A stretch of DNA of 64,000 bases, taken from assembly GCF_046105845.1 (NCBI RefSeq), contig NZ_CP151004.1. One strand, given 5' to 3'. Below the pieces are notes generated by a model. The model had not been told where the DNA came from. It searched no databases and saw only the letters and a program-made list of their open reading frames with translations. This document shows positions 5,802 through 63,409 of this stretch, one piece after another; the first letter of the stretch is position 1, and each line of letters starts with the position of its first letter. Source of the stretch: Escherichia coli. Lineage in GTDB: Bacteria > Pseudomonadota > Gammaproteobacteria > Enterobacterales > Enterobacteriaceae. The position numbers and the translations under genes are program-made.

Positions 5802-6779
5802 TTATTCAACGAGTATTGGCGATAACCAGTACAACATCGCCAGCCATACGATAAATCCGCCAGTTAATAATACCCCTACACCACGGCCCGATTGCGGGGA
5901 GCGCCGCCAGCACAGCAACGCAAAAATAATGCTCACCAGCAACATCACGCTGTAGTCACGACTGTACGCCAGTGGATCAATCTCTCCTGGCGTTATCAGC
6001 GCGGGTAAACCCAACACGATGACAATATTAAAAATGTTTGCGCCAATGATATTTCCGACCGCAATGTCGTTTTCACCTTTGCGAACCCCCGCTATTGCGG
6101 TTGCCAGTTCCGGCAGGCTGGTTCCGATAGCAATTGCCGTCAGACCCATCGTCAACTCGCTGATGGCAAAGTAATTCGCCAGCACCGTGGCGTTATCAAC
6201 CACCATCCGCGTGGCCACTGGCATGATGATAAGCGCAATGCCGAGCCATAAAAACGCGACGGGCAATCCGCCGTCACGCGGCAGCTCTGCAAGCTGCTCT
6301 CTGGTCAGGCTGTCAGTCCCCTGACGTTCAGCCTGACGTGCAAGTTTAACAATGAACAGCAGCCATAGCACAGCCAGAAAGAGGAGAAAGATACCATCGC
6401 TGCGACTAAGTTGTCCGTCATAGAGTACGGAACCGGCCACCACGCTGACCAACAACATTAAGGGTAATTCACGGCGTAGAACATCAGAATGGACGGTAAA
6501 AGGACGAACCAGCGCAGCCAGACCGAGGATCAGCAATATATTGATAATGTTTGAGCCGAGGGCTGTACCAACGGCTAAATTGCGTTGTTCGTGCAGTGAC
6601 GCGGCAAGCGAGACGATGATTTCTGGTAACGATGTACCAATACTGACCACCGTCATGCCGATGATCAGCGGCGGGATGCCAAAGGTTCGGCAAAGAATGG
6701 ACGCGGCAAAAACCAGGCGGTCGGCACTGTAAACGACCAAAAGTAAACCAACAATTAACAGTGCCGTAGCTAAAAGCAT
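5802..6779 (-). CDS. yrbG: Na+/Ca2+ exchanger family inner-membrane protein, 325 aa
   Basis: MLLATALLIVGLLLVVYSADRLVFAASILCRTFGIPPLIIGMTVVSIGTSLPE; duplicated GTSLPE motifs. Confidence 0.9.
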   Translation of the reverse strand: MLLATALLIVGLLLVVYSADRLVFAASILCRTFGIPPLIIGMTVVSIGTSLPEIIVSLAASLHEQRNLAVGTALGSNIINILLILGLAALVRPFTVHSDVLRRELPLMLLVSVVAGSVLYDGQLSRSDGIFLLFLAVLWLLFIVKLARQAERQGTDSLTREQLAELPRDGGLPVAFLWLGIALIIMPVATRMVVDNATVLANYFAISELTMGLTAIAIGTSLPELATAIAGVRKGENDIAVGNIIGANIFNIVIVLGLPALITPGEIDPLAYSRDYSVMLLVSIIFALLCWRRSPQSGRGVGVLLTGGFIVWLAMLYWLSPILVE

Positions 6780-6988
6780 CTAACGTCCTTTCTTCAGGTA
6801 TACTCGCCGGTCCGCTGAAGATTTTCAGAAAGCCGTAACGGATTCTTAATTTTGACTTTATGCGGCTAAAAAGTAAAACAAATGCCAGCTTTCGCTAACC
6901 ACGGCGGGTAATATTCTGTAAATATGTTGGGTTCAAGGTTAAATTGAGCGCCATGCTTAGAAAATCAACGCAAGACGAAGGGTGAATT

Positions 6989-8588
<1,600 letters not shown>

Positions 8589-8592
8589 GTTC

Positions 8593-9144
8593 ATGCAAAC
8601 GAAAAAAAATGAAATTTGGGTGGGTATCTTTTTATTAGCAGCACTACTGGCGGCGCTGTTTGTTTGCCTGAAGGCGGCGAACGTGACGTCCATACGTACT
8701 GAACCGACCTACACGCTTTATGCGACGTTCGATAACATTGGCGGCCTGAAAGCGCGCTCTCCGGTCAGCATTGGTGGTGTTGTTGTGGGCCGGGTGGCGG
8801 ATATTACGCTGGACCCGAAAACATATCTGCCGCGCGTAACGCTGGAAATTGAACAACGTTATAACCACATTCCTGATACCAGTTCGCTGAGCATTCGTAC
8901 TTCCGGCCTGCTGGGGGAACAATATCTGGCATTAAACGTCGGTTTTGAAGACCCGGAACTGGGGACTGCTATCCTGAAGGATGGCGATACAATTCAGGAC
9001 ACCAAGTCTGCGATGGTGCTGGAAGATCTTATTGGTCAGTTCCTTTACGGTAGTAAAGGCGATGACAATAAGAATAGTGGCGATGCGCCAGCTGCTGCGC
9101 CAGGTAATAATGAAACCACTGAACCTGTGGGTACAACGAAATAA
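8593..9144 (+). CDS. mlaD: MCE-domain periplasmic phospholipid-binding protein MlaD
   Basis: ORF 8578..9144; conserved start MQTKKNEIWVGIFLLAALLAALFV at ATG 8593. Confidence 0.93.
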   Translation: MQTKKNEIWVGIFLLAALLAALFVCLKAANVTSIRTEPTYTLYATFDNIGGLKARSPVSIGGVVVGRVADITLDPKTYLPRVTLEIEQRYNHIPDTSSLSIRTSGLLGEQYLALNVGFEDPELGTAILKDGDTIQDTKSAMVLEDLIGQFLYGSKGDDNKNSGDAPAAAPGNNETTEPVGTTK

Positions 9145-9797
<653 letters not shown>

Positions 9798-9798
<1 letters not shown>

Positions 9799-10091
9799 TG
9801 AGCGAGTCACTGAGCTGGATGCAGACGGGTGACACGCTGGCGCTATCCGGAGAGCTGGATCAGGACGTTCTGCTACCGCTTTGGGAAATGCGTGAGGAAG
9901 CGGTGAAGGGGATTACCTGCATCGATCTTAGCCGTGTGTCCCGCGTGGATACGGGTGGACTGGCACTGCTGCTCCATCTTATCGATCTGGCGAAAAAGCA
10001 GGGCAACAACGTGACGCTTCAGGGGGTAAACGATAAAGTGTATACCCTGGCGAAATTGTATAATTTGCCTGCTGATGTTCTGCCTCGTTAA
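9798..10091 (+). CDS. mlaB: STAS-domain protein MlaB, 97 aa
   Basis: Start ATG 9798-9800 overlaps the mlaC stop (TAATG); MSESLSWMQTGDTLALSGELDQDVLLPLWEMREE. Confidence 0.9.
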
Positions 10092-10250
10092 ATTTTTTCA
10101 GGCCGGATATGGCGTTAACCGCCGGTCCGGCAAACCTGCCTGCAAGTCGAGCCTTGTCTGATTTATCAGCGAGGCTTTTTGCTTATTTATGCCAGCGCAA
10201 CTTTGCTCTAAGATGTTTCGCTGGTTTATTAACTGATGATTGAAGATCCC

Positions 10251-10505
10251 ATGGAAAATAATGAAATTCAGAGCGTGTTGATGAACGCTCTCTCCCTCCA
10301 GGAAGTCCACGTTTCCGGCGATGGCAGCCACTTTCAGGTTATTGCCGTGGGTGAGTTGTTTGACGGCATGAGTCGGGTTAAAAAACAGCAGACGGTCTAT
10401 GGCCCGCTGATGGAATATATTGCGGATAACCGCATTCATGCTGTGTCGATCAAAGCGTATACCCCTGCGGAGTGGGCGCGCGATCGCAAACTGAACGGCT
10501 TTTGA
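10251..10505 (+). CDS. ibaG: BolA-family acid-stress protein IbaG (YrbA), 84 aa
   Basis: ORF 10236..10505; conserved start [33 protein letters not shown] at ATG 10251. Confidence 0.9.
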
Positions 10506-10559
10506 GCTATGGGCGATTCGCCGGTAGCGGATATGAATTGTTAACTGAGAACAAACTAA

Positions 10560-11819
<1,260 letters not shown>

Positions 11820-55775: not shown

Positions 55776-55790
55776 GCCTGCTGCTGGAAA

Positions 55791-56885
55791 TTACCTGACA
55801 ATAACCGTAATGGTAGCTGATGCTTTAAAAGGTCCGGTCGACAATACTCCACCGACCAGATTTACAGGATAAGCCTGAAAGTGTGTTGTTCCTGCTCCGG
55901 TTTTATCTAGCAGAATGATGCCTGGATTAAATGGAACATCTACTTGCCCTTTAGTCACATCCATAAGGCGGATACCAACATCAGGGACATCATCACTTTC
56001 ACGGCGTCTTGCGACTAAATTATATTGATTAACATAATCTGAACCTTCAATTTTCATATACAAGCTATTGTTAATTTGGGACATATCACCGCAATCATAG
56101 GTAATATCAAAGCTTACTGGAGTGTAACCTGTTGGCATCTGATTTTGTAGGGTGAAACGTTGAGCGCTAATAAATCCAAGATTTACATTAATGGTATCAC
56201 CTTGATTTATTTTGCAACTTTGAGGTACCGTAATTCGGCCTTGAATATAGATTTTAGCAATATCCTTAATGGGACGTGGTGCAGCAGAAGTACTTGTCCA
56301 CGCAGCCTGGACTGAAGCAATATGTGTTTCAGGGATATTCAGTTCACCCAAAAATGGCGTAGTGACGTATAGTGTAATCGTTGTATTTTTACCAATAGAA
56401 AAGTCTGATCCCCGAACATTGGCTGGGTCGGCCATGCACACACTATTGTTTTTGTTAGCATGGTAAGTACCAGTACCGTCTCTAAGCGGTGTATATGAAT
56501 TGCTTGGAACCATAACAGATGGATTACCAGGAATGTCGTTTATTTGGGTTTTAATATCCAGATTAGAATTCAGTCGATAGAAATCTCGTTCTTTACCTTG
56601 AGTTATTAATGCAGATGTTACTGTATAATACAGGTTAACTTTACTACCTGCCGGACAAGAGCAGTTTAAGGTGTAATTGCTCCCAATAGCTGAATTCTTT
56701 ACCACATAATCTTTGCCGGCAACATTATTATCTTGTGTCCAGTCCTCAGAAGCATCTGTCCGAAATTCACCTGTTCCTTCACAATCACCTGTTGCTGCCT
56801 TTACCGATGGGCTAAGTAACAGGGGGGAGACCACGGCAGCAATAGACAATAGTTGTTTAATCATTTTGAAACTCCCTAAAGACAC
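55791..56885 (-). CDS. yraK: Putative fimbrial adhesin/tip protein of the yra chaperone-usher operon
   Basis: MSLGSFKMIKQLLSIAAVVSPLLLSPSVKAATGDCEGTGEF (signal peptide; start could be the internal MIKQ); last gene of the usher operon. Confidence 0.85.
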   Translation of the reverse strand: MSLGSFKMIKQLLSIAAVVSPLLLSPSVKAATGDCEGTGEFRTDASEDWTQDNNVAGKDYVVKNSAIGSNYTLNCSCPAGSKVNLYYTVTSALITQGKERDFYRLNSNLDIKTQINDIPGNPSVMVPSNSYTPLRDGTGTYHANKNNSVCMADPANVRGSDFSIGKNTTITLYVTTPFLGELNIPETHIASVQAAWTSTSAAPRPIKDIAKIYIQGRITVPQSCKINQGDTINVNLGFISAQRFTLQNQMPTGYTPVSFDITYDCGDMSQINNSLYMKIEGSDYVNQYNLVARRRESDDVPDVGIRLMDVTKGQVDVPFNPGIILLDKTGAGTTHFQAYPVNLVGGVLSTGPFKASATITVIVR

Positions 56886-59398
56886 TTTGCCGAATCACGA
56901 ATAATGGGGGTAGTGATGTTCGCGCTATCGTTCAGACTAAACGTAAACTGGCATTGTTGGTTTATTCCACTTCCCCAGCGAACCTTCCAGGTTTGTGGTT
57001 TTTTATTAATGCCGGAGAGATAAATAACTCCAGCTTCATCGACAATACTTTGTTGGAATTGGCCTTCATTACTGGCAACAGCACCAAAAGGAATGGGCTT
57101 ACCTTGGACGTCAGTTAGTGCTAATAGCACTCTGTGACCGGTTTGGGCATTAAAATTTGCAACGACAGCGGCGCCCTGTCCTGGCACGACAATCTTTGCA
57201 GTCTCCTGGACATCTACATTATCCGGCATTGTAGTAGTGTCTAAGGCAATACGATTTTCCTGATAAGCCGTTAAATAAGGGATGACGGCGTAACCAAAGT
57301 AATCGGTGGCAATACCAGGGTAATTTTTAACCCGAATATTAGATGCACCCTGGGTATCAATTACGGCAAATGTATTACCCAGCGGTTGTGAGAGAGTCAC
57401 CCCATGGGGGTGTGCGACAATTCCACCTGAAAGACCATAGCTGAACTGGCGACTGTTTGACGTGTAATCATAGTTGGCGTTAACAGTGCCATAAGCAGAG
57501 CGGTAACTACCAGAAAGCGTACTGCCGTTATTATTATTTTCCTGGTCCATTCGTTGTTTAAAGCTGTAACTTAATCGGTTGTCATCAAGGAAAGAACCGG
57601 TAATGCCAGTCTCATATTGAGTTGAACGGTATTTTTCATCAGTGACACGAAACGTAGCTTGTGCATTAGGTAACCAACGATCCAGAGGCAGACTAATACT
57701 AAAAAAGATTGCCCTATCACTATCGCGATCGGAATAATCTGTGAATTGTCCACTCACGCTGTAGCTGATGCCGGCAAGATAGCCGTTCAGTCCGGCAGAA
57801 TAATTGCGATCATTTTGTTCTGCTCCCCAGTATTCTCGTTGTGCACCTGAAATATAAAAACTGAGATTATCAGTCAGCGTTTGGTTAACGTTGAAAATCG
57901 CTTCGCTGCGTTGGCGATTGTTTACATTAATATCACGTTGGTTTGCGTCGGCAAAGGTAAAAAAAACTGAGTTGGAATAGCGCGAGTAACTAAGAGAAAG
58001 GCTTGTTCCTGTTTCGGGTATATCTTTAATATATTGAAAACGTAAACCTTCCCCGGTAAATTTTTCTTTATTTTCTAACTTCGTTTTGGCATAAGTTAAA
58101 TCAACGGAAAGTGCGCCCAAAATACTCAATGTGCTACCGATGCCTAATGCTGCTGCTTGATAATCCTTGGATCCAGTTACCCCACCATAAAGAGTGAAAA
58201 TATTAGTAAGGCCGTAAAATGCTGTGCCTTCGATGAACTCTGGTTCTTTACTATTAGATGACGGGTCTGCACGAAATCGCCCTGCTGTCATGCTATATAA
58301 AAGATGGCCTGGCCGTTGCATAACAGGAAGTGCTGAAAACGGCTGAGTAAATTGGCGAACGGTACCATCGGCTTCTTCAATTGTAACGTCTAAATCACCG
58401 CTAAATGAGGATGGATAGAGATCGTTGATTTCGAATGCTCCCGCCGGGACATTGCTTTGATAAATTGTATAGCCATTCTGGCGGATGGTGACTATTGCGC
58501 TGGTATTGGCAATCCCACGGATAATCGGTGCAAAACCTCGTAAGCTATTCGGTAACATGTTCTCGTCAGAATAAATTCTGGCACCCGTAAACTGAACGCT
58601 GGAAAAAATTGTGCCATCAGTGGCGCTTTCACCAAGCACTAATTGCGACTTTAAACTCTTAATATCACGCTGCAACCAACTATTAATACTATCCCAGCGA
58701 GTCTCATTACTGCTATGTGTCCACGTGGAGTAATTACGCAACCGCCATGGGCCGATATTGACTCCATTTTGCATATTGAGATAAAACCTTTCATTCTTTT
58801 CGCTGTTACTATAATAACTGTTCGAGCCACTAAAACTGTAATTGGTAAACAATACTGGAATACCATGATCCCACCTGGCGGGATCAACATAACCAGAAGG
58901 GTCACGCCGCAGGGCAATTTGTGGAATGTCCAGGATGAGAGTGCTATGGTTGAGGTCTATCTTTGTTTTGCTTCCAGGTACGGTTTTGGATAAATCTGTT
59001 ATCAGGGCGTTGTCATCAAGAGTATTTAGTGAATTTATTTCGTCAACTTTAAAACCCAATTCGCGTAAAAGACCAACGGTAAGCTGTGGGCGAATTTCTC
59101 CATTATCATCTATAGCAAAAGTGATTTTTCTCTGAGTCACCTTTTTTTTATTGATAACGATCTCAACATCATAATCACCGGGACTATGAGTATTTTTACC
59201 GGAGAAAGCAGATAAATCGCTTGCCTTTTGACCACTCTTTGTTGTTTCCAGCAATGAGGGATCAAAATAGTAATTGTCAGCAATGGCATGAAGAGGGGAC
59301 AGAACTCCACCAGTAATAAGAACAGGTAATACTGTTTTTAACCAGCAGGAAAGTGGTTTCATAACAGGTAAAGAGATGCATTTTATTTTGGTTTTCAT
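56876..59398 (-). CDS. yraJ: Fimbrial outer-membrane usher protein, 840 aa
   Basis: MKTKIKCISLPVMKPLSCWLKTVLPVLITGGVLSPLHAIADNYYFDPSLLE; usher-size beta-barrel protein; C-terminal Cys pair. Confidence 0.92.
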   Translation of the reverse strand: MKTKIKCISLPVMKPLSCWLKTVLPVLITGGVLSPLHAIADNYYFDPSLLETTKSGQKASDLSAFSGKNTHSPGDYDVEIVINKKKVTQRKITFAIDDNGEIRPQLTVGLLRELGFKVDEINSLNTLDDNALITDLSKTVPGSKTKIDLNHSTLILDIPQIALRRDPSGYVDPARWDHGIPVLFTNYSFSGSNSYYSNSEKNERFYLNMQNGVNIGPWRLRNYSTWTHSSNETRWDSINSWLQRDIKSLKSQLVLGESATDGTIFSSVQFTGARIYSDENMLPNSLRGFAPIIRGIANTSAIVTIRQNGYTIYQSNVPAGAFEINDLYPSSFSGDLDVTIEEADGTVRQFTQPFSALPVMQRPGHLLYSMTAGRFRADPSSNSKEPEFIEGTAFYGLTNIFTLYGGVTGSKDYQAAALGIGSTLSILGALSVDLTYAKTKLENKEKFTGEGLRFQYIKDIPETGTSLSLSYSRYSNSVFFTFADANQRDINVNNRQRSEAIFNVNQTLTDNLSFYISGAQREYWGAEQNDRNYSAGLNGYLAGISYSVSGQFTDYSDRDSDRAIFFSISLPLDRWLPNAQATFRVTDEKYRSTQYETGITGSFLDDNRLSYSFKQRMDQENNNNGSTLSGSYRSAYGTVNANYDYTSNSRQFSYGLSGGIVAHPHGVTLSQPLGNTFAVIDTQGASNIRVKNYPGIATDYFGYAVIPYLTAYQENRIALDTTTMPDNVDVQETAKIVVPGQGAAVVANFNAQTGHRVLLALTDVQGKPIPFGAVASNEGQFQQSIVDEAGVIYLSGINKKPQTWKVRWGSGINQQCQFTFSLNDSANITTPIIRDSAKCL

Positions 59399-59450
59399 TA
59401 TTCCCTTATTTCCTTATTCCCTGTCATATGTATAAGTTTTGTATAAATAA

Positions 59451-60143
59451 TTATGGCAAAGTAGATGTATATGTATCCGTATTACCGCCATAGTCATTAA
59501 TGGCTGCCCATTTCACGATGTTTTCTGAAACTAATGGCAATGGTAATTGCTTATGTTCACCCGGTGCAATAAATTCTATTTTATCGGTAAAGTCGGTTTT
59601 TCCTACAGCCAGTCCTGAAAAAACAACGTAATATGCCGAAGGATTATATATCTCCAGTTGGTTGTTCTTCCTTGAGAATTTTAGGCCTTTATAGGCATCT
59701 GAAGGTCTACCGTCCATTTCTGATGGTCTGTAAAAGAGTTTAATGCGTGTTTTAAATACTAAAGTAAGTAGGTTCTTATCTTGCGTTTCTTTTTTATCGA
59801 CAGCAGGAATTGCACGGACGTTAATATAAAAAAGTGATTCTTTATCTCTCGGTAGATTGCCATCGGTTTTAATGATACGCAATGAAGAGTTGTCTCCGGC
59901 ATCAAGACGAAATAGCGGAGGGGTAATAATAAAAGGGCCGCGAGAAGAGTCATAGATATTTTCAACCCACGATTGTAATAAATATGGTGGTTTATCACTT
60001 CGATTAGTGACCGGCAATGCAGCTTCTTTTTTACTACCATCATAAACTACACGCGTTCTTTCCAGAAGGATTCCACCAGCCAGACTCTGGTTCACCCAGC
60101 CAGCTAATAGAAAAAGTATTGCAAACGATTTTTTAATCTTCAT
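59451..60143 (-). CDS. yraI: PapD-like periplasmic fimbrial chaperone, 230 aa
   Basis: [62 protein letters not shown]. Confidence 0.92.
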
Positions 60144-60232
60144 CTTCTGTTACCGCTACGAAATAAAATTGTCTCTTTAACAGCAGACCGCTAAAGAGAC
60201 AAAATAAAGGATTATGAACTAATGACTAGTTA

Positions 60233-60805
60233 TCAACGATAATCAAGAGTTACATCCACAGTAGCATTAGCTTCACCGGGTTTGATTTTATCGGCTGTTG
60301 TGGTTGACACATAGTAAGCCGCTAAATCTAAATTCATCGTGGAACCAGTAATTGGGAAAGATATCTTTGGAACACTAAGTTTGTTAATTGCCATAGGTGT
60401 TTGAGCATCTTTTTCAATCCGAATACCAACACCTGTAGCCGCGGTATCTGGGTCCATACTTGTAACAGCAACTAACTCATTGTTATCACCGGTAGTTGCT
60501 CCGTTACGCGTTTCCAGCCATAACTGGAAAGACGCATCTTTAGTACCATCAATGTGATCCCAGGCTACCGTTGGGCAGTTTTTCAACGGAATAGTGAAAG
60601 GGATCGTAGGGGATTTATCCCCTTTAAACTTAAACTGATTAGCGGCATAGTGACCTAATTCAACATAAACTGTATCACCATTCGCAAATTCACAGACAGT
60701 GCCAAGAATTTCACCCGTGAATTCAATTTTTCCATCGGTTGCGGAGGCGCTACCGGCAAAAAGCGCCAGCAGGCCAGCGGCAACTGTCTTAGCTACTTTA
60801 CTCAT
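60233..60805 (-). CDS. yraH: Fimbrial major subunit (pilin), 190 aa
   Basis: MSKVAKTVAAGLLALFAGSASATDGKIEFTGEILGTVCEF (signal peptide, conserved Cys pair); first gene of the usher operon. Confidence 0.9.
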   Translation of the reverse strand: MSKVAKTVAAGLLALFAGSASATDGKIEFTGEILGTVCEFANGDTVYVELGHYAANQFKFKGDKSPTIPFTIPLKNCPTVAWDHIDGTKDASFQLWLETRNGATTGDNNELVAVTSMDPDTAATGVGIRIEKDAQTPMAINKLSVPKISFPITGSTMNLDLAAYYVSTTTADKIKPGEANATVDVTLDYR

Positions 60806-61285
60806 AAGATAACCTTAGTCCTTGTAACTAGTACTTCGAATAAATATGAAATGTAAGATTCTTTTCAACAACAGAAACGATTATACCTACTGAAGCATGG
60901 AGTGGATAAAAAATAGTCATTTTTAAGAATATATTTATATTTCCTGAAGCTATTTAAAAACCATATATATTAGTATTGATTATGTTATGATGTGAATGTA
61001 GTAAGACTAAAAGGGTAATTATAAGTATAATTCAATGGGTTGATAGCAGTTATTGTAATGATAATCACTAATATTGACTTTTGTAGTTATGAGTTGTGAA
61101 CTGTAAGAATAAAATGTAATATGTTATGACGTTTAATAGTTGATGTTGTTAAATATAAGCTTAATTAAACTATATGATATTGAAAAAGTGGGGATGGATA
61201 ACTAAAACTATTTTGCCTGTATATACGAGCAGTGGAAGGGGTTTGCACAGGAAGCCCTTTCTTCTGTTGAACAGGCCTCCCCTAC
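60806..61285 (-). promoter_or_regulatory. Extremely AT-rich upstream/regulatory region of the yraHIJK fimbrial operon
   Basis: About 480 bp of long A/T tracts (e.g. atatatattagtattgattatgttatgatgtgaatg); no convincing ORF; typical of nucleoid-protein-silenced fimbrial promoters. Confidence 0.45.
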
Positions 61286-61403
61286 GATGGTTGCAGAACG
61301 GGCGTTCTTCTGCGAGTGCTCTGACACGTTATCGATAGCCTTCACTGGCCGTGAATCAGACGATTATCAATACGAGTTAAGAGAATATTTGACAATGTCA
61401 TGT
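61286..61403 (-). pseudogene. Relic of a mannose-family PTS operon: EIIB start (19 codons) joined out of frame to an EIID-like fragment
   Basis: Minus strand from ATG 61401-61403 reads MTLSNILLTRIDNRLIHGQ* (EIIB-Man hallmark RIDxRLIHGQ); the next frame reads VKAIDNVSEHSQKNARSATI, about 80 percent nucleotide-identical to agaD 62874-62950 (VKAIDKVRENSQMIARSATI). Confidence 0.6.
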
Positions 61404-61451
61404 TTTTATTTCCTATCATCCATTTCACCTTTATTTGGTTTATCAGAGGGC

Positions 61452-61482
61452 AATAAAAAAGGCAGATAATTAATTATCTGCC
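61452..61482 (-). terminator. Intrinsic terminator on the minus strand about 370 nt downstream of agaI
   Basis: Perfect palindrome ggcagataattaattatctgcc (61461-61482) followed on the minus strand by a U-run (complement of aaaaaa 61455-61460). Confidence 0.6.
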
Positions 61483-61852
61483 TGATGTGTCATGCTTTTT
61501 TTGCATCCGTTCTCATGTTTTTACCAGAAAATATCTTTGTGTGCCGAAGTTAAAACGTAAGTAATTTCACCGTTTTGCACATAGTGGCAGCAACCTTCAA
61601 TAATGATTCTGGCATTGCAAGCAAAATGATTGACCCATTCGGTCGCTGTGTGTCCGCTTTTTTCGTTGGCGGGTTTTGTTCTGATTACTGAACAACGTAA
61701 CGTGTTTATCTATAAATTAAACAGTGAACATAATTTCATTTTTAAGTGAAATTATGTTCAAGTTGATTACAGATTACTTAACTTAAAATATAGTTAATGA
61801 AGTTAAAGTATTGGTTTTGGCGTATTAGTCGTATTTCTGATAAAGAAAGTGG

Positions 61853-62617
61853 TTATGCTTTGCTTCTCTCTATTAAACAAATAAAGTTACTGTGCAGCCA
61901 TAAAAACGAAGCCGGGATAGCGGTGGAGACTTTAGCCGTGAGAAAACGTTCTGTCGCATCCTGCTTTCCTTCGCCAGTCACCAGTAACAAAACTTCGCGG
62001 GCACTGAGAATATCCTTCAGGCCTAAGGTGATCCCACGAATCACGGGACGGCCCGCGGTTTTTAACATCTCATGTTGCTGTGTTCTGGCATCAAGTTGAC
62101 TGATATGGCAGGCCGGTTGCAGGCTTTCTCCCGGTTCGTTCAGCCCAAGATGACCGTTTTTCCCCAACCCGAGAACGCATAAATCCAGACCGCCTTTGCG
62201 CGCAATCAGGTTCGTTACCCGTTCGCACTCTGTCTCATTTATCTCTTCGGAGCGAAAGCTGATGAGCTGGTCTTCACGCAGCCCCAGCGGCTGCACGATA
62301 TGCTGTTGTAGGAAAGTTTCGCAGGTGCCAGGCATCGTTAATGGCAGATCCACCCATTCGTCGAGCTTCACGAAGGTGAGCTGGCTGACATCAACCTGCT
62401 GCTGGTGGATTTTTTCTACCAGATAATGATACGTCAGTAATGGCGTGGCTCCGGTCGCCAGGCAAATCACGGCATCCGGTTTGCTACGGATCACGGCCAA
62501 TAAATATTCGCTGGCACGTTCACTTAACGCCGTATAGTTTTCAACTTGTTGAAGGGTTTGCACAGGATGAAATTCCTTAAGTAAAGAGGCACCGCCAGAC
62601 GCGGTGCCTCGTTCCAT
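61853..62617 (-). CDS. agaI: Galactosamine-6-phosphate deaminase/isomerase-like protein (NagB family), 254 aa
   Basis: MERGTASGGASLLKEFHPVQTLQQVENYTALSERASEYLLAVIRSKPDAVICLATGATPLLTYHYLVEK. Confidence 0.9.
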   Translation of the reverse strand: MERGTASGGASLLKEFHPVQTLQQVENYTALSERASEYLLAVIRSKPDAVICLATGATPLLTYHYLVEKIHQQQVDVSQLTFVKLDEWVDLPLTMPGTCETFLQQHIVQPLGLREDQLISFRSEEINETECERVTNLIARKGGLDLCVLGLGKNGHLGLNEPGESLQPACHISQLDARTQQHEMLKTAGRPVIRGITLGLKDILSAREVLLLVTGEGKQDATERFLTAKVSTAIPASFLWLHSNFICLIERSKA

Positions 62618-63409
62618 TTACAAAATGCCGAATGCGGAACAAACAATAGAGAGCACAAAAGTCACGCCGATTAACAGCACCGGATGCGCTTTTTTCACCC
62701 GCAGGAAGTAATACATCAGCAGGGTGTAGGCCATCGGTAAAATGTTCGGGAAGACTTTATCGAAGAAATCCTGTTGCAGCGCGACGCTGTGGGTACTGTC
62801 GATGGCAAACGATGTCACCACGTTAATATGCACATACGAAGCGATCAGCCCGCCGATTACCGTGATCCCGAGGATGGTTGCCGAACGAGCAATCATCTGC
62901 GAGTTCTCTCGCACTTTATCGATCGCCTTCACGCCGACTGAATAACCGACGTGGGTCCAGCCGACGCGCAGGAAGAAGATAAGCAGGTAAACGGCGAAAA
63001 ATAGAATCGGCCCCAGCAAGTTTCCCTGGCTGGCAAATGATGAGCAAATTCCCGCCATAATCGGCAATAAGGTAAACCAGAAAATCGCATCGCCAATCCC
63101 GGCGATTGGGCCAAACAGTGCCACTTTGAGGCCTTTAATGGTGTCGCGGTTTTCTCCTTTTTCTTCCATCGAAATTAATAACCCCATCAGGAATCCGACC
63201 AGATTCGGGTGGGTATTAATAAATTCGAGGTTATCTTTCATCGCCGCGCTTAGGCCCGGTTTGTCGTCCTTATAAATCTTTTTCAGGATCGGCAACATCG
63301 CCCAGGTAAAACCGCCCGCCTGCATCCTTTCGTAGTTAAAGCTTGCTTGTAGCAGTGACGAACGAAAGCCCAGACGGGTGATATCTTTTTTACTGATTTC
63401 AGATCCCAT
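62618..63409 (-). CDS. agaD: PTS N-acetylgalactosamine/galactosamine EIID component, 263 aa
   Basis: ORF 62618..63571; conserved start MGSEISKKDITRLGFRSSLLQASFNYERMQAGGFTWAM at ATG 63407-63409. Confidence 0.9.
   Translation of the reverse strand: MGSEISKKDITRLGFRSSLLQASFNYERMQAGGFTWAMLPILKKIYKDDKPGLSAAMKDNLEFINTHPNLVGFLMGLLISMEEKGENRDTIKGLKVALFGPIAGIGDAIFWFTLLPIMAGICSSFASQGNLLGPILFFAVYLLIFFLRVGWTHVGYSVGVKAIDKVRENSQMIARSATILGITVIGGLIASYVHINVVTSFAIDSTHSVALQQDFFDKVFPNILPMAYTLLMYYFLRVKKAHPVLLIGVTFVLSIVCSAFGIL

Follow-up and report, generated by a model that had tools for sequence, protein, structure and literature searches.

A probable patB/malY relic with an inherited terminator downstream of agaI in a minority lineage of Escherichia coli

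The window, that is, the whole 64,000-nucleotide stretch of E. coli DNA analysed here, includes part of the aga/gam cluster: agaB lies outside it and agaC is partly within. On the minus strand, agaI is followed by a gap of 1047 nt that extends to a fimbrial subunit gene. The initial annotation placed about 370 nt between agaI and a minus-strand terminator, and these coordinates are correct, with the agaI stop at 61853 and the terminator at 61483–61452. The features of the region, listed from agaD onwards, are the following.

62618–63409, minus strand: agaD, directly preceding agaI
61853–62617, minus strand: agaI, an intact open reading frame, the context gene upstream of the interval
61761–61852, minus strand: AT-rich spacer directly after the agaI stop, with no homology outside the carrier lineage
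61725–61760, minus strand: AT-rich hairpin, TGAACATAATTTCA-loop-TGAAATTATGTTCA, with a 14-bp stem (dG −22.6 kcal/mol, z −6.6)
61662–61733, minus strand: the rest of the post-agaI spacer, which ends in an A-run and joins the patB/malY remnant
61655–61668, minus strand: novel junction at which the A-run of the post-agaI spacer meets approximately codon 334 of patB/malY, with GAAA microhomology
61521–61709, minus strand: composite stop-free frame of 62 codons (61709–61524) and its stop (61521–61523)
61490–61661, minus strand: 3'-terminal fragment of a PatB/MalY-family C-S lyase pseudogene, codons 334–390 of 390, delimited by tblastn and nucleotide alignments
61452–61483, minus strand: intrinsic terminator, hairpin AGGCAGATAATTAATTATCTGCCT plus T-run TTTTTTATT
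61345–61401, minus strand: agaB' remnant, second copy, ATG plus 19 codons (MTLSNILLTRIDNRLIHGQ), cut by an internal deletion
61280–61345, minus strand: 'agaD remnant, second copy, codons 160–181 (VKAIDNVSEHSQKNARSATIVG), fused to agaB'
60233–60805, minus strand: fimbrial subunit gene at the far end of the 1047-nt gap

The minus-strand frame downstream of agaI reads ...SGHTATEWVNHFACNARIIIEGCCHYVQNGEITYVLTSAHKDIFW and then a stop. Sixty-two stop-free codons are indeed seen, as the initial annotation had it, and its remark that the frame lacks an obvious start also stands, as no ATG, GTG or TTG start in the 61709–61521 frame gives 25 or more amino acids. However, the length of the frame is at the chance level. 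When the 369 nt were simulated 5000 times with a first-order Markov model, the longest run without a stop in six frames averaged 62 codons, and a run of at least 62 codons has P = 0.45; hence the open frame by itself is no evidence of anything. The frame is composite: it starts in the spacer, passes through codons 334–365 of the remnant in their true frame, and continues out of frame after a frameshift.

The remnant accounts for about 172 nt of the 369-nt interval. When the whole gap was compared by megablast with 5,426 complete E. coli genomes (28 Gb), 61345–61660 matched at 80–81% identity (E 1e-59 to 1e-62) in 31 genomes, where the matching DNA is annotated as 'MalY/PatB family protein' followed by 'PTS sugar transporter subunit IIB'. 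In local searches the DNA homology covers 316 nt at 78–81% identity, with E 1e-68 to 1e-77. The intact protein, 390 amino acids ending in ...SGRSATEWVNHFARNAGVIIEDGSHYVQNGENYLRLNFGTQRYWLEQALERMQKIA before the stop, gives two tblastn pieces in the gap (E 1.4e-16, a value that refers to the small local database of this comparison): 61661–61566 corresponds to codons 334–365 with 72% identity, and 61566–61498, in a different frame and with an internal stop, to codons 366–388 with 74% identity. This match, obtained with the coding part alone, argues against a similarity resting on the terminator and agaB' alone. Overall, the remnant is 72–74% identical to the intact PatB-family gene at the amino acid level and 78–81% at the DNA level. 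Of the gene, 85% is lost; the N-terminal 333 codons are gone and the last 15% (57 codons) are left.

What is left carries three lesions. The nucleotide alignment places a 1-nt deletion (−1 frameshift) within 61561–61574; a TTA codon has become the nonsense codon TGA at 61513–61515; and a second 1-nt deletion within 61490–61503 has destroyed the original stop. Because of the deletion within 61561–61574, the peptide tail ITYVLTSAHKDIFW is an out-of-frame reading, and the peptide given in the initial annotation is a frameshift artefact: after ...HYVQNGE the ancestral reading goes on in the other frame as NYLRFNFGTQRYFLVKT, a stop, and ERMQK.

The substitutions tell the same of the remaining codons. 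Relative to the gene of Escherichia sp. MOD1-EC7003 (locus L004), the remnant has 8, 7 and 11 differences at codon positions one, two and three, respectively, and 14 of 56 residues are changed, while the intact Escherichia genes differ from each other at 2, 1 and 6 such positions. Thus, the third-position bias typical of purifying selection is not observed in the remnant, and the even spread of substitutions over codon positions points to neutral decay. Some of the changes hit the segments VIIEDGSHYVQ and RYWLE, invariant in the homologues inspected from Kluyvera, Enterobacter and Citrobacter.

The intact relative passes the PatB-family C-S lyase model TIGR04350 (368.7 bits against a cutoff of 340) and also matches PF00155. 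The reconstructed 57-aa peptide of the remnant has no Pfam match, being too short and too damaged to match any Pfam model. The remnant lacks the full-length aminotransferase class I/II fold domain, which takes up about 390 aa in a single open frame, and is not a functional enzyme; the fragment encodes nothing. In comparison with the intact PatB/MalY C-S lyases (WP_032185184.1 of E. coli 2020CK-00188 and O145:H28 strains, and the MOD1-EC7003 orthologue), the remnant is colinear with codons 334–390 and is followed by the same next features, a terminator and the start of agaB, but it sits after agaI, whereas the intact patB/malY genes are situated between malX and agaB. Both the homology and the gene neighbourhood (an own terminator, then agaB) identify it as a PatB/MalY pseudogene fragment. 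It bears no annotation in RefSeq/PGAP or in the gene calls of eleven related assemblies. A truncated, frameshifted pseudogene fragment with an orphaned terminator is an ordinary kind of object.

Hence the initial suggestion of a gene remnant holds for 61661–61490, the 3' end of a PatB/MalY-family gene, and fails for the agaI-proximal 190 nt, which are native spacer. The whole interval is, very probably, made of two parts: at 61661–61490, a dead patB/malY 3' fragment with its own terminator, and at 61852–61662, the native agaI-downstream spacer with its hairpin.

The terminator hairpin (61483–61460) has a 10-bp stem with four G-C pairs and a 4-nt loop, and is followed by the T-run (dG −14.5 kcal/mol, z −3.75). 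A G+C-containing hairpin with a T-run is the structure of a rho-independent terminator, and 61483–61452 has the same stem, loop and T-run as terminators of this class, but it has lost its gene, and termination here is now predicted. At the loci of 2020CK-00188 (L002) and MOD1-EC7003 (L004), the hairpin starts within about 10 bases of the patB/malY stop, and after roughly another 60 to 90 nt agaB begins. The window and 2020CK-00188 share an identical block of 34 nt that takes in the hairpin, though the flanks are about 80% identical. Since the terminator directly follows the stop codon of the intact gene at both loci, by descent it belongs to the patB/malY-like gene and not to agaI, to which it had been ascribed.

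A scan with the intact protein, one genome per species, returned 19 loci. The MOD1-EC7003 locus has the order kbaY–malX–patB–terminator–agaBCDI–hairpin–yraHIJK and provides intact templates for the parts of the interval. Its features and the alignments with the window are as follows.

L004 8417–9988: malX
L004 10001–11173: patB/malY
L004 11179–11201: terminator
L004 11260–13358: agaB, agaC and agaD
L004 14253–15008: agaI
L004 15057–15080: hairpin, followed by yraH, yraI, yraJ and yraK
Window 61733–61683 (minus strand) against L004 15073–15123, 86% identity: the spacer after agaI
Window 61660–61345 (minus strand) against L004 11001–11316, 78% identity: the patB/malY 3' end, the terminator and the start of agaB
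Window 61345–61287 (minus strand) against L004 13044–13102, 80% identity: agaD codons 160–181

In MOD1-EC7003 agaD and agaI are separated by about 0.9 kb (L004:13359–14252); in E. coli these genes abut.

The junction between the first two aligned segments reads CCGCCAACGNAAAAAGCGGACACACAGCG in the window. The window follows the MOD1-EC7003 spacer into the A-run (...CGCC..CGAAAAAA) and then switches to patB/malY at ...GAAAGYGGAC.CACAGC.ACCGAATGGGTCA. Owing to GAAA microhomology, the alignment with the spacer and that with patB/malY are compatible with each other over the junction bases.

Further remnants, agaB' and 'agaD, adjoin the patB/malY fragment and form one decayed block with it. Relative to MOD1-EC7003, the agaB'–'agaD fusion amounts to a deletion of approximately 1.73 kb (L004:11317–13043). 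The second agaB start is preceded by AGGAAA, and the fusion yields an open reading frame of 19 aa, MTLSNILLTRIDNRLIHGQ, ending with a stop. Both agaB' and 'agaD are slightly nearer to the E. coli alleles (89% over 47 nt and 85% over 66 nt, respectively) than to those of MOD1-EC7003 (80%). This closeness is not predicted by a simple duplication inside a MOD1-EC7003-like genome.

Further on, for approximately 340 nt at 61279–60941, neither the E. coli genomes nor any of the fetched loci yielded a homologue. Blastn of 60806–61344 against all complete E. coli genomes yields strain MEW alone, in addition to the agaD paralogy for 61280–61344, and neither tblastx nor low-stringency blastn of 61300–60806 against all fetched loci reveals further remnants. 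The G+C content of 61208–61280 is about 47%, the remainder of 60941–61279 having 24–29%; the former segment may be another gene scrap.

The agaI-proximal 190 nt align weakly with the agaI–yraH spacer of K-12 and better with the post-agaI spacer of MOD1-EC7003. Blastn of 61661–61852 against all complete E. coli genomes again finds strain MEW alone. This part of the interval contains a second hairpin (61760–61725), stronger than the terminator, which was missed in the initial annotation. Its 8-bp core, GAACATAA/TTATGTTC, occurs once after agaI in K-12, MOD1-EC7003 and 12 of 12 carrier strains, and the 64-kb window has a single instance of the pattern GAACATAA...TTATGTTC, against 0 expected by chance. 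In all three backgrounds, K-12 (L003:1608–1641), MOD1-EC7003 (L004:15057–15080) and the lineage of the window, the hairpin is located 50–95 nt after the agaI stop. The folding energies are −22.6 (window), −18.9 (K-12) and −16.7 kcal/mol (MOD1-EC7003), with z between −5.5 and −7.0. The window shares a loop length of 18 nt with K-12, while the loop of MOD1-EC7003 has 8 nt; pairing is kept or extended, up to the 14-bp stem of the window. A protein-binding site recognising GAACATAA...TTATGTTC at a fixed spacing was considered and rejected as the leading reading, since the spacing changes between 18 and 8 nt and the pairing is kept; the variable loop and extended stem fit an RNA or DNA hairpin better.

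The hairpin is un-annotated in the K-12 record, and the copy from the window has no Rfam match. A simple terminator scan also lists 61760–61725 as terminator-like. The hairpin is probably the native terminator of the aga operon or an RNA-stability element, and it is likely to form the native end of the aga transcript, being a more likely candidate for agaI's own terminator than 61483–61452. If so, the 3' UTR is shorter than the 370 nt that the initial annotation put between agaI and the terminator.

The interval belongs to a larger divergent segment. The DNA at 55776–61871 (6.1 kb) is 65–68% identical to K-12 and about 80% identical to MOD1-EC7003, whereas the flanks, up to 55775 (rsmI onward) and from 61872 (agaI, agaD), are 97–98% identical to K-12. 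The foreign yraHIJK allele, with these same identities to K-12 and MOD1-EC7003, is on the same segment as the relic, and its YraH protein is 52% identical to that of K-12. The segment looks like an allelic replacement ending in the last agaI codons and the end of rsmI. The high identity to typical E. coli DNA breaks off near 61872, which is seven codons short of the agaI stop. AgaI is 98% identical to the K-12 protein, but it has 254 aa and ends in ...FICLIERSKA, and the K-12 protein (251 aa) differs after ...FICLI; the tail differs because the divergent segment begins inside agaI.

Among the 5,426 complete E. coli genomes, strain MEW, isolated from an ivory gull, is the only one in which megablast finds the full gap (99%). 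In an index of public draft and Logan assemblies, 158 blocks contain the exact YraH protein. Ten YraH-bearing loci were read, and all have a gap of about 1047 nt; no gene is called in the gap in any of the eleven loci other than the window (MEW and these ten). The window, MEW and the ten loci constitute a set of 12 sequences, in which 18 of 1047 sites (1.7%) vary in the gap, 4 of 172 (2.3%), including a poly-A indel, in the remnant, and 5 of 693 (0.7%) in yraI. Thus the relic changes no more slowly than the non-coding DNA around it and is conserved only through recent common descent. This arrangement is confined to one minority lineage of E. coli.

We interpret the window as carrying a decayed second copy of the segment from the patB 3' end through the terminator and agaB to agaD, set after agaI. 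A tandem duplication of the patB 3' end, terminator, agaBCDI and spacer would create the junction of the spacer with patB codon 334; alternatively, the same junction would arise by illegitimate insertion of a fragment spanning kbaY through agaI and the spacer into patB. The redundant distal copy may then have been reduced, losing the bulk of the agaB-to-agaD stretch as well as all sequence from agaD codon 182 to a point past agaI, and deletions and point mutations would have eroded the rest. The order of these events, as opposed to the homology, lesions, synteny, junction and distribution described above, is what we infer, since the genomes searched contain no intermediate with two full tandem copies and no closer relative of the remnant, and the nearest intact sequences are just 78–81% identical to it. 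A metagenome scan for the terminator returned one contig, of the O145 (2020CK-00188) type, and no less decayed donor. The nearest relative of YraH (76%, P0002) has a K-12-like spacer in front and no remnant. In Citrobacter sedlakii the yra operon adjoins the gat cluster instead, and this locus provides neither a donor nor an intermediate.

Other readings of the interval can be considered. Its length of open frame is not significant, which would agree with random intergenic sequence whose likeness to a gene is coincidental. This reading is refuted by the homology over 316 nt (78–81%; E 1e-62 against 28 Gb of E. coli genomes), and the gene end, terminator and agaB start are moreover colinear with those of the intact loci, so that its probability is practically nil. 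A real small protein of at most 62 aa, with a non-canonical start or coupled to agaI, is hardly credible either. Its 62 stop-free codons do encode a protein-like amino acid sequence, but this likeness is inherited from codons 334–365 of a 390-aa enzyme, after which the frame is wrong; a frame this long is to be expected by chance, none of the canonical starts yields 25 aa or more, the substitutions are even over codon positions, no gene is called in the eleven related loci, and the 57-aa reconstruction has no match in Pfam.

It is, further, very unlikely that the remnant was co-opted as RNA, that is, that the interval is a functional structured 3' UTR of agaI or a 3'-UTR-derived sRNA ending at 61483–61452. 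Such an RNA, 401 nt long, would end in a strong terminator and folds well below shuffled controls (z −5.8), but the two local hairpins explain the low energy, and the structured 3' UTR proposed as an alternative in the initial annotation finds no specific support. There is no match in Rfam (15) at E up to 1 for 60700–61950 on both strands. In the 12 strains the terminator (0 of 32 variable sites) and the hairpin (0 of 36) are invariant, which would suit this reading, but with about 0.6 sites expected in each this is uninformative either way; the body between them has acquired substitutions and an indel no more slowly than the adjacent non-coding DNA. Moreover, the arrangement is limited to one minority lineage, and the hairpin at 61760–61725 probably halts most transcripts before they reach the remnant.

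The only plausible residual activity of the relic is that the inherited terminator would stop read-through from agaI. There is a small chance that the relic is not inert and that the terminator, with or without the body of the remnant, has been kept, either to act as a second insulator or to form the 3' end of an RNA derived from agaI. Were this true, it would shield from aga read-through the promoter region of the imported yra fimbrial operon, which is AT-rich and of the H-NS type.

Decay of the E. coli aga/gam cluster is known: K-12 has a 2.3-kb deletion, and agaC and agaI of O157:H7 carry nonsense mutations (PMC3668189). The present case concerns the same locus, an amino-sugar cluster variable between lineages, and events of the same kind, that is, deletions, point mutations and truncated pieces. 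However, the lesions in K-12 and O157:H7 affect the 13 canonical aga genes, whereas in the window the canonical agaD and agaI are intact and the debris comes from an extra patB/malY–agaB–agaD segment, which is not in the cluster as described for K-12, E. coli C or O157.

Another parallel is the agaB' pseudogene of the O145:H28 strains, which RefSeq describes as 'PTS sugar transporter subunit IIB, internal stop; incomplete': it has the same neighbourhood of patB/malY stop, terminator and agaB start, and is also truncated. The O145:H28 strains have intact malX and patB/malY, while agaBCDI and yraHIJK are replaced; the window keeps the opposite genes. In 2020CK-00188 the order is agaS–kbaY–malX–MalY/PatB–IIB pseudogene–LysR regulator. 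The distal part of this type (L002:1884–4057), consisting of the agaB' pseudogene, the LysR regulator gene, an MBL-fold hydrolase gene and then rsmI, represents a third structural state of the locus.

Outside Escherichia, agaS–kbaY–malX(IIBC)–patB/malY is a conserved block in Kluyvera, Enterobacter, one Citrobacter, an unclassified Enterobacteriaceae isolate and two Aeromonas species. It is present in L004–L019 and L021 (at about 6250–11170 in most of them), usually downstream of agaVWEF-like genes. In the literature on aga, malX and yraH we found no description of the remnant or of a malX–patB module in aga clusters, and no role in the Aga/Gam pathway reported for a PTS of the MalX type and a C-S lyase of the PatB type.

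In itself the relic matters little. Its identification keeps the frame from being mistaken for a small open reading frame or sRNA, and fixes the boundary and the content of the 6.1-kb imported segment with its foreign yra fimbrial allele. It documents that Escherichia aga clusters once carried malX–patB between kbaY and agaB, as some lineages still do, and the malX–patB module, kept with agaS–kbaY as far as Aeromonas, merits a functional look.
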